A stretch of DNA of 64,000 bases from the NCBI GenBank assembly GCA_041891055.1, contig CP169074.1, positions 1,184,001 through 1,248,000 of the forward strand, given 5' to 3'. Every line of letters begins with the position of its first letter. Within the stretch, counting starts at the first letter, position 1. Shown piece by piece: positions 14,702 through 62,366 of this stretch. Made by a program: the position numbers and the translations under genes. The DNA comes from Halorutilales archaeon Cl-col2-1. GTDB lineage: Archaea; Halobacteriota; Halobacteria; Halobacteriales; Afararchaeaceae. The notes beneath the pieces are model-generated. The model ran no database searches. It was not told where the DNA came from and saw nothing but the letters and a program-made list of their open reading frames with translations.

Positions 14702-14941
14702 ATGAAACGCTCTCTCTACAGCTGGACTTTCCGTAAGCTCCGGTCTATGATTGAGTACAAGGCTGAGGAAGAGGGGATTCCTACCGAAGATGTCGAGCCC
14801 AGTCTAACATCTCAGACATGTAATGAATGTGGCAGTCATGACACACGGCGAGACGGCATACATTTCGCGTGTCACGACTGCGGATACAGTGTCAACGCGG
14901 ATGTGAATGGGGCTTTCAACATAGCCCTCAGAAAGTCTTAA
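14702..14941 (+). pseudogene. tnpB: IS200/IS605 tnpB C-terminal fragment
   Basis: LRSMIEYKAEEEGIP...TSQTCNECG...FACHDCGYSVNADVNGAFNI (zinc ribbon + RuvC-III); in-frame stop five codons upstream, N-terminal ~300 aa absent. Confidence 0.88.
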
Positions 14942-20352: not shown

Positions 20353-21783
20353 ATGGGACTTCTAGACAGATTCAGGTCTGACGAGGATCAGAGTCAGAAG
20401 GTCGCTTTCATAGGAATAGACGGTGTGCCGAAGTCTCTCCTCACGGATCTCATCGAAGACGGCAGGCTCCCCAACATAGAACGTATCTCGGGCGGCGATA
20501 TCGATAGCATGAACGCAGTCGTTCCCCCAGAGTCAAGCGCGTGCTGGCCTGCGATGACGACGGGTACGAACCCCGGGAAGACGGGGGTTCTCGGCTTTCA
20601 GGAACGTGAGAGAGGCTCCTACGACACCTATATACCCCTTGGAAAACACGTCAAGTCGAAACGCGTCTGGGACGTAGTCGGGGACTCGGGAAGGAGAAGC
20701 GTCGTCTCGAACGTTCCCGTGACATTCCCGCCCGAGGAGATAGACGGTACTATGGTGTCGGGCTTCCTCACGCCCGAGATAGAGTCGGTATCGAACGACC
20801 CCGAGGTCGTCGAGTACCTCAAGTCGATAGACTACCGCGTAGACGTCGACGCCAGCTTAGGACACGACGACAAGGAGGAGTTCATACGTAACGCGAGGGA
20901 GACACTCGACGCACGTGCCGAGGCTCTCTACCATTTCATAGAGAACGAGGACTGGTCGCTCCTCTGGCACGTCTTCATGGCGACCGACAGGGTCAACCAT
21001 TTCCTCTGGGAGAACTACGAGGAGGGTGACCAACTCGGCGACGAGTTCGTGGAGTTCTACGAGAGAGTCGATGAGATCATAGGCGAGATCCGTGAGAGGC
21101 TCGACGACGACACGTCGATGATAGTCGCCGCCGACCACGGCTTCTGCCGACTCGAACACGAGATAGACATGAACGCGTGGCTACGTGACGAGGGATGGCA
21201 GTCACTCGACGTCGAAGCCGAGGAGGGTGACTGCGAAGTCGAGACGAGCCTCGAAAACATCACCGACGACACGAAGGCATACAGCCTGATACCCGGACGT
21301 TTCTACATAAACCTCGAAGGACGCGAGCCACGAGGAAGCGTCTCAGAAGACGACTACGACGAGGTGCGCGACCAACTCGTCGGGATGCTCGAAGACCTCG
21401 AAGACCCCGATGGCAACGAGGTTATGGAGGAAGTCTATGTCCGCGAGGAGGTCTATGAAGGCGACGAGTTCGGTATAACACCCGATGTCGTCTGTGTCCC
21501 CAACCGAGGATACGACCTCAAGGCGTCTTTCGGTCCTGACAAGCCCGTCTACAAGAAGGGCGAGAGGAACGGAATGCACACATTCGACGACGCTACTCTG
21601 ATAGTCGATATTCGCGAATCTGAGGATTCGCGTGCACACGAGAACGAAAGTTCTCGGGATACCGGCGACGAAGTCGAGATAGACGCCGACGACGCCTCGA
21701 TTATCGATGTGGCTCCGACTGTCCTCGACCTGATGGATATAGACGCGCCCGATGAGATCGACGGCGAGAGTCTGGTTAAGTAA
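20353..21783 (+). CDS. Alkaline phosphatase superfamily (nucleotide pyrophosphatase/phosphodiesterase-like), with a 17-aa insertion near the C-terminus
   Basis: FIGIDG, PPESSACW...TGTNPGKTG, DRVNH, ADHGF, GMH, DVAPT. Confidence 0.88.
   Translation: MGLLDRFRSDEDQSQKVAFIGIDGVPKSLLTDLIEDGRLPNIERISGGDIDSMNAVVPPESSACWPAMTTGTNPGKTGVLGFQERERGSYDTYIPLGKHVKSKRVWDVVGDSGRRSVVSNVPVTFPPEEIDGTMVSGFLTPEIESVSNDPEVVEYLKSIDYRVDVDASLGHDDKEEFIRNARETLDARAEALYHFIENEDWSLLWHVFMATDRVNHFLWENYEEGDQLGDEFVEFYERVDEIIGEIRERLDDDTSMIVAADHGFCRLEHEIDMNAWLRDEGWQSLDVEAEEGDCEVETSLENITDDTKAYSLIPGRFYINLEGREPRGSVSEDDYDEVRDQLVGMLEDLEDPDGNEVMEEVYVREEVYEGDEFGITPDVVCVPNRGYDLKASFGPDKPVYKKGERNGMHTFDDATLIVDIRESEDSRAHENESSRDTGDEVEIDADDASIIDVAPTVLDLMDIDAPDEIDGESLVK
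21611..21659 (+). repeat. 49-bp double-hairpin mini-element, in frame in CDS, TA flanking duplication
   Basis: ta|TT CGCGAATC tgag GATTCGCG tgcac aCGAGAAC gaaa GTTCTCGg GA|ta. Confidence 0.8.
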
Positions 21784-24140: not shown

Positions 24141-24167
24141 CGTGAAGTACCTCGGGGACAAGCCCCG

Positions 24168-24263
24168 TCACAAGATCTCCGATCTTGTTGGCACGTCAAA
24201 CAAAGTTTGACGAACGTCCCGAGATCTTCGATCTCGTGTGCTCGCAAATCGAAGATTTGCGAA
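24168..24263 (-). repeat. Two tandem 47-bp double-hairpin mini-elements separated and flanked by CG
   Basis: cg|TC ACAAGATC tcc GATCTTGT tggca CGTCAAAC aaa GTTTGACG AA|cg|TC cCGAGATC ttc GATCTCGt gtgct CGCAAATC gaa GATTTGCG AA|cg. Confidence 0.8.
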
Positions 24264-24593
24264 CGAGGCTTCACCGTTTTGTCCATGTCGTCCAGAAACG
24301 GACGGATGGACGCATGCGAATTTAATTCCCCTCGTCCTTCCCGAGATGGGTCGGCTGGAATTAACACCCGAACACTCGCTATGTCCGTGAGGGTCGGTCG
24401 CTCCACCACGACCCGACAACTCCCGTCTCACTGCCAGTGGCAGGTTTTGAGAGGAGTCGCATTTCCAAGCCTCCGCAGTCAGCATTGGATTAAGGTCTTT
24501 AATCCGTCTTTTGGGTCTCTGACTGTACCAACGTATTGGAAATGTGTGTTGATTAACCTTTACCTTTCGACGGGCTTCACCCTCGGGGTCAAG

Positions 24594-24645
24594 TCAAGGA
24601 AAATCTTTGATTTTCCGTATCCCAAAAAGCTCTGCTTTTTGAAGA
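24594..24645. repeat. Variant double-hairpin insert in the IS left end
   Basis: GGAAAATC ttt GATTTTCC gtatcc CAAAAAGC tct GCTTTTTG; removing it restores GGGGTCAAG-CCCCGAGG. Confidence 0.65.
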
Positions 24646-24712
24646 CCCCGAGGCACTCGCCCTGTTCAACCTGTAGAGTAGAAAGGAAGCCACACCTTAC
24701 GCTACTCCTAAT

Positions 24713-34778: not shown

Positions 34779-34862
34779 GCGAGGGTAGCCAAGCCTGGAA
34801 ACGGCGGCGGACTCAAGATCCGCTCCTGAAGAGGTCCAAGGGTTCGAATCCCTTCCCTCGCA
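34779..34862 (+). tRNA. tRNA-Leu(CAA)
   Basis: GCGAGGG/CCCTCGC acceptor stem, GCGGA-CTCAAGA-TCCGC anticodon arm, long variable arm, GGTTCGAATCC. Confidence 0.95.
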
Positions 34863-52167: not shown

Positions 52168-52241
52168 CCCGCCCTAGCTCAGTCTGGTAGAGCGGTCGAC
52201 TGTAGATCGACTGGTCCTCCGTTCAAATCGGAGGGGCGGGA
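52168..52241 (+). tRNA. tRNA-Tyr(GTA)
   Basis: CCCGCCC/GGGCGGG acceptor (archaeal C1-G72), GTCGA-CTGTAGA-TCGAC, GTTCAAATC. Confidence 0.95.
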
Positions 52242-52389: not shown

Positions 52390-52462
52390 GCCCGAATGGT
52401 GTAGTGGCCCATCATACAACCCTGTCACGGTTGTGACGCGGGTTCAAATCCCGCTTCGGGCG
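52390..52462 (+). tRNA. tRNA-Asp(GTC)
   Basis: GCCCGAA/TTCGGGC acceptor, CAACC-CTGTCAC-GGTTG, GGTTCAAATCC, G73. Confidence 0.95.
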
Positions 52463-61658: not shown

Positions 61659-62366
61659 ATGGACGTTCCCAAATCTTCAGATTCGCGTGCACCCGAGAAT
61701 GGGGGTTCTCGGGACGCAGAGAAACTCGGCTCGGCGATAGACCACACACTCCTCGACAAGGATCACACGACGGAGGACGTTGACGAAGCTGTGAGAACGG
61801 CGGACGACTACGGCATGAATATCTGTCTCCCGCCGTCGAGGATCGAACGCGTACCAGCATCCTTCATGGGTGAGGTATGTAGTGTCGTCGGCTTCCCCCT
61901 CGGGTACAACGACACCGAGACGAAGGTATTCGAGGCACAGCGTGCATCCGAGGACGGCGCTACGGAGGTCGACGTCGCGTGTAATGTCTCACATCTCAAG
62001 TCGAGGAGCTACTACGAGTTCAGGAGCGACGTCGAGAGGGTCGTCGAAGCCGCCGACGTCAGGGTAAAGGCTATAATAGAGACGGGTCTTCTCTCGAAGT
62101 CGGAGATAAAGAGGGCGTCTAAGCTGTGTGTCGAGGCGGGTGCCGACTACGTCAAGACGTGTTCGGGGTTTACCGACGGTGAGGCTACGCCGAGCGACGT
62201 GAGGACTATCAGAGAGGCTGTGGGCGAGGGAGTAGGCGTGAAAGCAAGCGGAGGAATAAGGAGCTACTCCGATGTCGTCGAGATGGTGAGGGCGGGAGCG
62301 ACACGTATAGGAAGTAGCTCAGGGAAGGAGATAGTCGAAGATTTCAGTCAGAGTCAGAGCCGATGA
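61659..62366 (+). CDS. deoC: Deoxyribose-phosphate aldolase, with a 17-aa N-terminal insertion
   Basis: IDHTLL, VVGFPLG, KAIIET, YVKTCSG, VKASGGIR, RIGSS. Confidence 0.95.
   Translation: MDVPKSSDSRAPENGGSRDAEKLGSAIDHTLLDKDHTTEDVDEAVRTADDYGMNICLPPSRIERVPASFMGEVCSVVGFPLGYNDTETKVFEAQRASEDGATEVDVACNVSHLKSRSYYEFRSDVERVVEAADVRVKAIIETGLLSKSEIKRASKLCVEAGADYVKTCSGFTDGEATPSDVRTIREAVGEGVGVKASGGIRSYSDVVEMVRAGATRIGSSSGKEIVEDFSQSQSR
61666..61714 (+). repeat. 49-bp double-hairpin mini-element (partly decayed), in frame in deoC, CG flanking duplication
   Basis: cg|TT CCCAAATC ttca GATTCGCG tgcac CCGAGAAt gggg gTTCTCGG GA|cg. Confidence 0.78.

Follow-up and report, generated by a model that had tools for sequence, protein, structure and literature searches.

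The window, that is, the whole stretch of 64,000 nucleotides analysed here, contains a phosphodiesterase gene into which an element made of two short hairpins has been inserted in frame, and this genome (G000, contigs C1 and C2) holds more than 100 copies of such twin-hairpin elements, with a unit length of 43–54 bp. Sequence comparisons indicate that the family is a recently active, widespread mini-element, the mechanism of which we infer. The element inserts as a unit, with a 2-base direct repeat in one class of copies (class I) and without duplication in another (class II). Its landing sites are the end palindromes of IS605-type elements and PATEs, its own ends, tRNA ends and genes, and the gene copies survive at lengths that are multiples of three (3n). 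With moderate confidence, we favour a non-autonomous mobile element that moves as folded single-stranded DNA (ssDNA) by means of an enzyme acting in trans. A sequence-only reading of this DNA had proposed an ultra-short mobile element that adds peptide segments to proteins; empty sites, covariation, in-frame copies and a search in which no mobiliser was found uphold that proposal, but the single geometry that it assumed gives way to two junction classes (Table 1).

Table 1. Twin-hairpin elements of the window, their direct repeats and their hosts (positions of the window).
Feature	Position	Strand	Evidence and remarks
Alkaline-phosphatase-superfamily phosphodiesterase, host gene	20353..21783	+	ORF; PF01663, E 7.5e-42; orthologues
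Left GATA direct repeat of the phosphodiesterase insert	21607..21610	+	Right copy 21658-21661; empty allele of G001 is GACA
Class I element with both TA copies	21609..21661	+	TT, hairpin 21613-21632, spacer TGCAC, hairpin 21638-21657, GA; 51 bp, or 17 codons, gained overall
Non-coding, PATE-like host element; near-terminal palindromes of IS605 type	24142..24677	.	Three mini-elements inside; missing from a related strain (run X1 joins 24141 to 24678)
Class I element, 49 bp net, CG at both ends	24166..24216	-	Head-to-tail with the 24215 copy; geometry scan, covariance model, fold
Class I element, 49 bp net, CG at both ends	24215..24265	-	Best covariance-model match, 75.4 bits (itself in the training set)
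Class II element, 52 bp, T...A ends, no duplication	24594..24645	+	At G|C in the apex of a host palindrome; palindrome empty at other loci; joints in run X4
deoC, host gene (235 aa)	61659..62366	+	Element right behind Met-Asp
Class I element in deoC, 51 bp net, CG at both ends	61664..61716	+	Decayed first stem; common to congener G001

The phosphodiesterase comprises 476 residues, or 459 without the insert, which lies near the C-terminus. The layout drawn earlier for this insert (TA, TT, stem, TGCAC, stem, GA, TA) is borne out by sequence and DNA fold. The first hairpin has an 8-bp stem and the loop TGAG, the second a stem with 7 of 8 bp paired and the loop GAAA, and TA stands on either side (21609-21610 and 21660-21661), the direct repeat being in fact 4 bp long (GATA) and not just TA. 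Folded as DNA, the insert forms two hairpins with a stability equalled in none of 200 shuffles (z −4.4), and two hairpins form on either strand (z −4.4 and −5.2). The addition of 17 codons is confirmed by the congener G001 (98% protein identity), where exactly 51 bp are missing, and by an alignment of 11 orthologues, this congener included, none of which has the 17 residues. Among public contigs, run X1 crosses the insert without a gap and runs X2 and X3, which belong to one study, skip it; one related strain has the insert and two others are without it. Because the site is empty in G001, in the orthologues and in X2 and X3 and filled in X1, the insertion is polymorphic and recent. GAC-A in the empty allele stands against GAT-A on both sides in the filled one, so that one substitution must be assumed. 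No solved structure was matched by the phosphodiesterase sequence, and its AlphaFold model (seven sequences) has a mean pLDDT of 42, too low to place the insert.

The same geometry recurs as previously described at 61666, 24168 and 24217. The copy at 24594 had been taken for a variant, but it lacks the TT, GA and 2-bp geometry and is instead a 52-bp T...A unit between G and C. Relatives of its non-coding host element are present elsewhere in the genome, and the label PATE-like is suggested by analogy with the description in the available sections of PMC3119063. The deoC copy is older than the phosphodiesterase copy, being common to G001 and having a decayed first stem (z −2.2). Elsewhere in the window, an 84-aa frame with a TnpB zinc-finger fragment (14729-14923, plus strand) is an IS605-type remnant, and tRNA genes at 34779-34862, 52168-52241 and 52390-52462 are the only Rfam matches.

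The family emerges, as had been anticipated, from genome-wide searches. A geometry scan of this genome gives 48 rows with 45 distinct starts, which are the strict copies, and none in each of three shuffles of C1, and a covariance model built from 32 copies gives at least 139 matches on both strands (150 of 979 candidates scored), with at least 144 in G001 (150 of 858 candidates scored). Further counts refer to 110 copies, namely the 108 covariance-model places that remain once doubles on the opposite strand and matches below the level of about 1e-4 are removed, and two from the geometry scan or another search. CG stands on both sides of 57 of the 110 copies, 48 abut another copy, with head-to-tail arrays, and 38 fall in the 3.4% of the genome surrounding tnpB or tnpA, an excess in IS ends that can reflect neutral DNA and passenger spread. 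Clusters also occur at the 3′ ends of tRNA-Pro, tRNA-Glu and tRNA-Ile genes, and 44 of the 93 non-coding matches are 49 bp long. At C1:1463952-1464948, which lies beyond the window, an 81-bp unit is repeated head-to-tail about 12 times, each repeat with a fragment of the upstream tRNA 3′ end.

Stems differ between copies while pairing is kept, as had been noticed from a few of them. Indeed, 11 of 16 stem pairs are altered on both sides (0 of 500 shuffles) and the stems are 92.7% paired, compared with 17–48% in slid registers, under a control that is lenient in that the structure is drawn from the same sequences and the copies are related. Left and right hairpins are variously combined, with 27 combinations among 37 matches, and the class I ends are only pseudo-symmetric. 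The designation ‘structure-defined' thus stands for the conservation of structure but is too narrow, the AATC/GATC...GATT core and the purine-N-A loops being conserved in sequence.

These loops carry a signature of DNA folding. Closed by C-G, they read GAA, GGA, AAA, GTA, AGA, ATA, GCA or the reverse complements; triloops dominate, on either strand, and 4-base loops are often GNRA. A-N-A loops behave like GNA loops. Purine-N-A is found on one strand or the other in 179 of 199 AATC/GATC-armed hairpins (~90%) against 194 of 389 other C-G-closed triloop hairpins (p 9e-24), a background that includes family relatives, with copies that are not independent. Among 29 distinct copies of this genome, the stable loop lies on the top strand in hairpin 2 of 27 and on the bottom strand in hairpin 1 of 17, and in a 54-mer of which metagenomes provide 78 copies, the loops take all four orientations on stems that are almost the same. 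According to PMC13037366 and PMC3201870, C-G-closed GNA triloops form unusually stable DNA hairpins, far more stable than those of RNA, that are poorly bound by SSB; GCGAAAGC has a melting temperature of 76.5 °C as DNA, against 39 °C for its RNA counterpart. Selection for folding as ssDNA, with frequent loop inversion, would account for such a pattern. Movement as folded ssDNA is proposed because the stems covary and the loops are the purine-N-A triloops of very stable DNA mini-hairpins.

Comparison of 48 filled and empty pairs, many of them ambiguous and within arrays, resolves the clean ones into the two junction classes. In class I (TT...GA), the flanks form a direct repeat of 2 bases, mostly CG and also GC, CA, CT or TA; class II (T...A ends) sits mostly at G|C and is exemplified by the 24594 copy, by copies in an IS5-family element and by the 54-mer that dominates the metagenome loci, which has TCGT(T/C)CG at both ends and reads T-CG...CG-A in 53 of 78 parsed loci. 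The 2-bp duplications noticed earlier hold for class I and fail for class II, and some class I flanks are mismatched (CG/TG, TG/CG, TA/CG), which subsequent C-to-T changes could explain, as could exchange of a 2-base core. Two different units found at one CT site, both CT-flanked, together with a TA pair and a GC pair, favour true target duplication. Overall, direct repeats measure 0–12 bases, the long ones being found at targets that look like the element end (tRNA ends, DnaK, locus L284 of G001). Empty sites are seen for the phosphodiesterase, BioF, three coding inserts present only in G001, paralogous IS ends and two genes of the f25 genomes described below. At C1:682501, a class I copy occupies the exact centre of an IS605 end palindrome that is empty at C2:112958; such IS ends are GC-rich palindromes with elements inserted, distinct from the AATC/GATC-based element arms. 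One IS5 lineage (C1:368602, 1015999 and 1299287, and C2:71430) has acquired four separate mini-elements (43, 45, 48 and 51 bp), and the IS5-family copy at C1:304610 has an intact transposase ORF and no mini-element.

With our own ORF caller, 17 of the 110 copies lie inside ORFs, a number that includes paralogous tnpB copies and one doubtful ORF, the deoC copy being booked to an overlapping antisense ORF. The predicted enrichment of 3n lengths in coding sequences is observed, 16 of 17 copies in ORFs having such a length versus 32 of 93 outside (Fisher p 4e-6), in a test that is partly circular in that a frameshifted gene would escape calling; in the 17th, the model boundary is 2 bases short. 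Ten ordinary genes of this genome carry a sense copy: those of SAM synthetase, MetRS, BioF, an M24 peptidase, a GT4 glycosyltransferase, an HTH-ThiN protein, a thioredoxin-like protein and a 209-aa protein, the phosphodiesterase gene and deoC. Their copies are always in the frame that gives an acidic or polar peptide of 16–18 residues, of the type D-V-R-E-S-E-D-S, the other sense frames being often closed, or basic and hydrophobic. The rule that coding copies have 4-nt loops and non-coding copies 3-nt loops does not survive: because copies inside genes measure 48, 51 or 54 bp and some of 51 bp are found outside genes as well (for example, C1:1615258), the loop-length pattern is selection on a pool of variable length. 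GA, which matches the element's own right end, precedes 9 of the 10 host-gene copies, and GAC is found in 8 of 9 compared with 17.8% among C-G codon junctions (p 8e-6), a preference for GA that can reflect, as a confounder, Asp-rich loops. A palindromic target as a requirement was rejected for coding sites, which are not hairpin-prone (p 0.77).

The deoC, MetRS, SAM synthetase, ThiN and 209-aa copies are common to both congeners; the phosphodiesterase and BioF copies are restricted to this genome, and G001 in turn has three of its own in coding sequence, of 51, 54 and about 60 bp. The GT4 glycosyltransferase gene, whose element has TA/CG flanks, has no orthologue match in G001. In the MetRS of G027, which belongs to another family, a different intact element lies one codon away in the same loop, and the MetRS loops of G011, G005 and G002 are without an element; these look like two independent insertions in one tolerant loop. 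The added peptides are probably tolerated loop insertions and not selected functions. A XerA-like tyrosine recombinase ORF (C1:1836609-1837721) contains two tandem elements, 99 bp in antisense orientation with the frame kept, and the element at C1:1893628-1893679 overlaps the stop-codon region of RNA polymerase subunit A″.

The family extends well beyond the genus. The class I pattern has 28 and 15 matches in the two genomes of this genus and 0–1 in 299 other genomes searched, 12 of which have one match, about half of these by chance. With the covariance model, at least 112 of 150 genomes of the order match (39 candidates scored per genome). In-frame copies of other genera lie in genes that, by our reading of their sequences, are presumably DnaK-like, LysK-like, PurK-like and oxidoreductase genes. 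In other genera (L129-L131, L140, L122), an element is located within a longer GC-rich repeated hairpin sequence with many copies per genome. The element is present on plasmids of cultured haloarchaea, with 14 haloarchaeal plasmid records in all; the best match lies outside any annotated feature in 13 of them and in frame in tnpA in one. The latter, on the Haloferax larsenii plasmid NZ_CP078064.1 (L141:1259-1711), is a 54-bp element just ahead of the HUH motif of an IS200/IS605 tnpA. A phylum-wide sample gave matches in 14 of 150 genomes at E 1e-5, four of them outside the order, namely all three sampled genomes of family f25 and one of four of f30. In the f25 genomes, the pattern has 146, 71 and 19 strand matches and a reversed control none; the f30 genome has 0 matches to the same pattern. 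The family is thus abundant in f25, a non-halophilic lineage of the phylum, the loci of which have 29–47% GC and proteins that do not look halophilic; the copies keep the AATC-NNN-GATT core and the same loops, and two in-frame insertions were found by comparison with close relatives (48 bp with a 4-base repeat, and 51 bp with no clear repeat). Viral contigs gave 0 matches in three pattern scans, a phage collection no full-length match, and a species-genome collection, which may lack records close to the source genome, only two loci with the strict class I pattern.

In the favoured reading, the hairpin pair would be recognised by an enzyme supplied in trans, which would cut about 4 bases from each stem; the ends would then be joined, probably after closing into a small circle (junction GA-CG-TT), to a target resembling that junction. 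Exchange of a 2-base core agrees with the hybrid flanks, in which CG stands on one side and TG or TA opposite it. The most likely single enzyme class would be an HUH strand transferase like the TnpA of IS200/IS605, an assignment that is possible but doubtful. TnpA makes no duplication of its target, and the CT-site units and the TA and GC pairs favour a genuine one. The connection with HUH enzymes suggested by the sequence-only reading gains no support from the correlation it proposed, as the presence of TnpA does not track the element. Y1 TnpA occurs in 9 of 14 genomes with the element and in 9 of 17 without it, is missing from G053, G318 and G328, and so shows no co-occurrence; this genome has one intact TnpA. 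Tyrosine recombinases, present in 14 of 14 element genomes and 14 of 14 controls, are uninformative. No autonomous partner was found among 49 lone element ends of this genome or among the ORFs between its neighbouring element clusters, and the recurrent neighbours at 80 metagenome loci are TnpB and TnpA only, with no other partner. Among the mobile enzymes tested (TnpA, Ssn-type nuclease, IS110, serine recombinase), none tracks the family; several genomes are incomplete, and absence of an enzyme today is compatible with past action.

That no tested enzyme tracks the family would also agree with spread by host replication or repair without a dedicated enzyme, in which a strand that is stalled or nicked would change template through microhomology onto an existing hairpin pair and then change back, producing short direct repeats, loop inversions and matched stem changes. 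The variable length of the direct repeats, greatest where the target resembles the element end, the free flipping of loops and the many hairpin combinations are consistent with it. Such an origin is nevertheless rather unlikely, for unit boundaries are base-precise over dozens of unrelated sites, coding targets show no tendency to form hairpins, and copy number is uneven by lineage, the genus standing apart from the 299 other genomes.

A dedicated hairpin nuclease or recombinase, so far unrecognised and comparable to RAYT on GTAG REPs or perhaps Ssn on CGTC REPs, is in our view distinctly unlikely; such a gene could be uncommon, be passed on horizontally or no longer be present in this genome. 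Distant lineages do show the same core and loops. The bottom strand of CG-flanked copies starts with CGTC followed by an 8-bp stem, like the CGTC-tagged REPs in the available text of PMC3733652, and SsnA cuts ssDNA beside such hairpins, as stated in that of PMC11893778. However, the candidate did not hold: the single-domain GIY-YIG gene of this genome has conserved neighbours and no element pair nearby, a pair lies within about 1.5 kb of only 1 of 35 GIY-YIG loci, where the protein is multi-domain, the f25 genomes have only long GIY-YIG proteins (519-aa frame) or none, the small type being absent, and the 80 metagenome loci yield TnpB and TnpA alone as recurrent neighbours.

A classical MITE, moved by a DDE transposase with 2-base duplication or by an IS607- or IS110-type recombinase acting on a 2-base core, is very improbable. 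The 2-base direct repeats, the preference for self-complementary CG, imperfect terminal inverted repeats and arrays with 2-base spacers have a MITE-like appearance, yet class II lacks a duplication, and a length of about 50 bp leaves very little room for the two ends to be paired on double-stranded DNA. No IS607-type serine recombinase is found in this genome, and IS110 is limited to 2 of 14 genomes, with none in this genome, G001 or f25. In one arm variant, 10 of 11 bases agree with an IS5-family terminal repeat of this genome, but the likeness is out of register with the element end, fits that variant only and is probably due to chance; no IS of this genome has matching ends in register, whereas the autonomous partner of a MITE shares with it both the terminal repeats and the target duplication. 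Finally, an RNA route (retroposition), or a functional RNA or regulatory hairpin, is scarcely credible despite the GNRA-type 4-base loops and the copies at tRNA 3′ ends and in the tnpB 3′ region, since triloops dominate on either strand, close relatives differ in the presence of copies, copies decay once inserted, and Rfam gives no match at gathering score.

The mobile ssDNA element favoured here has several counterparts. The SMR-A repeats of Haloquadratum walsbyi (HqIRS42, 43 and 55; Dyall-Smith et al. 2011, PMC3119063) are described in the available sections as transposase-free repeats of about 110 bp with no known mobiliser. Like them, the present elements are haloarchaeal, free of a transposase, in tens of copies per genome and without an identified mobiliser, and insert in near-terminal palindromes of PATEs and IS605-type elements (C1:682501, the 24594 copy and those near tnpB/tnpA); class II, which makes no duplication, may further resemble SMR-A in its inverted ends, SMR-A having prominent inverted terminal repeats and no target duplication. 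Class I differs by its 2-base direct repeat, and the units are shorter, two abutting ones amounting to about 100 bp. The main text of that source has no occurrence of ‘hairpin', and the available sections mention no two-hairpin fold and no in-frame SMR insertion. The statement that no such family had been described in haloarchaea was thus too strong, SMR-A having the same targeting and likewise no known mobiliser; no description of a two-hairpin family was found in the literature covered (Haloquadratum supplements and subscription papers lying outside it). The terminal-only PATEs of the same source (52 bp; HqIRS46, ISHwa23 derivatives) are of the same size, hairpin-based, possibly mobile and tied to IS605, yet they are fused IS605 ends keeping one copy of the repeated palindrome, whereas the present elements have two hairpins unlike the IS605 palindromes of this genome, inside which they lie.

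PMC2229807 and PMC10969869 give an account of Rickettsia palindromic elements (RPEs), which are long stem-loops of 105–146 bp inserted in frame in conserved protein genes of bacteria, and of coding palindromic repeats of an archaeon (Suyama 2005). Like the present elements, both are structured, add peptide segments in conserved genes and have no known mobiliser. Of the two parallels drawn earlier, that with RPEs holds for in-frame insertion, here in the ten ordinary genes and in DnaK-like and PurK-like ones elsewhere, and that with HUH/RAYT systems gains no support from the co-occurrence counts. As regards identity with a described family, size sets the elements (about 50 bp, two short hairpins, archaeal hosts) apart from SMR-A and RPEs, and behaviour is partly the same. 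CGTC-tagged REPs (PMC3733652) and Ssn/SRM repeats (PMC11893778), as far as the available text describes them, share CGTC next to an 8-bp stem, dimers, clusters and some copies in genes or target palindromes; in the present family, CGTC is found in CG-flanked class I copies (bottom strand, 8–9-bp stem) and is absent from the TA-flanked phosphodiesterase copy. The CGTC REPs are bacterial single units with loops of 4–5 bases and a CCA tail, in contrast to a fixed hairpin pair with mostly 3-base loops. A single-domain GIY-YIG gene with the repeat at its flanks, the trait of Ssn systems, was not found.

The mode of movement of transposase-free repeats (SMRs, RPEs, CGTC REPs) has long been an open question, and this family makes it testable, being short, synthesizable, present on haloarchaeal plasmids and endowed with a DNA-fold signature and polymorphic insertions with known empty sites. 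To the SMR-A behaviour (2011) and the coding palindromic repeats already known, the present analysis adds two junction classes, the mini-hairpin loop signature, a non-halophile lineage, the double insertion in MetRS and negative enzyme tests. The family accounts for lineage-specific inserts of 16–19 residues in archaeal housekeeping proteins, and inserts that arise twice in one loop, as in MetRS, could mislead indel-based phylogeny. A bolder and unlikely reading would make it the smallest self-delimited mobile DNA of archaea: a ssDNA dumbbell of ~50 bases capped by GNA mini-hairpins resistant to nucleases and SSB, moved by an undescribed chemistry or enzyme, found in halophiles as well as in non-halophilic anaerobes, and repeatedly giving rise to new loops in essential proteins, including two independent cases in the same MetRS loop. 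A separate insertion of 132 bp, present only in G001 after the 209-aa gene (L282, contig C9 of that genome), has long terminal inverted repeats, is SMR- or MITE-like and is unrelated to the twin-hairpin family.
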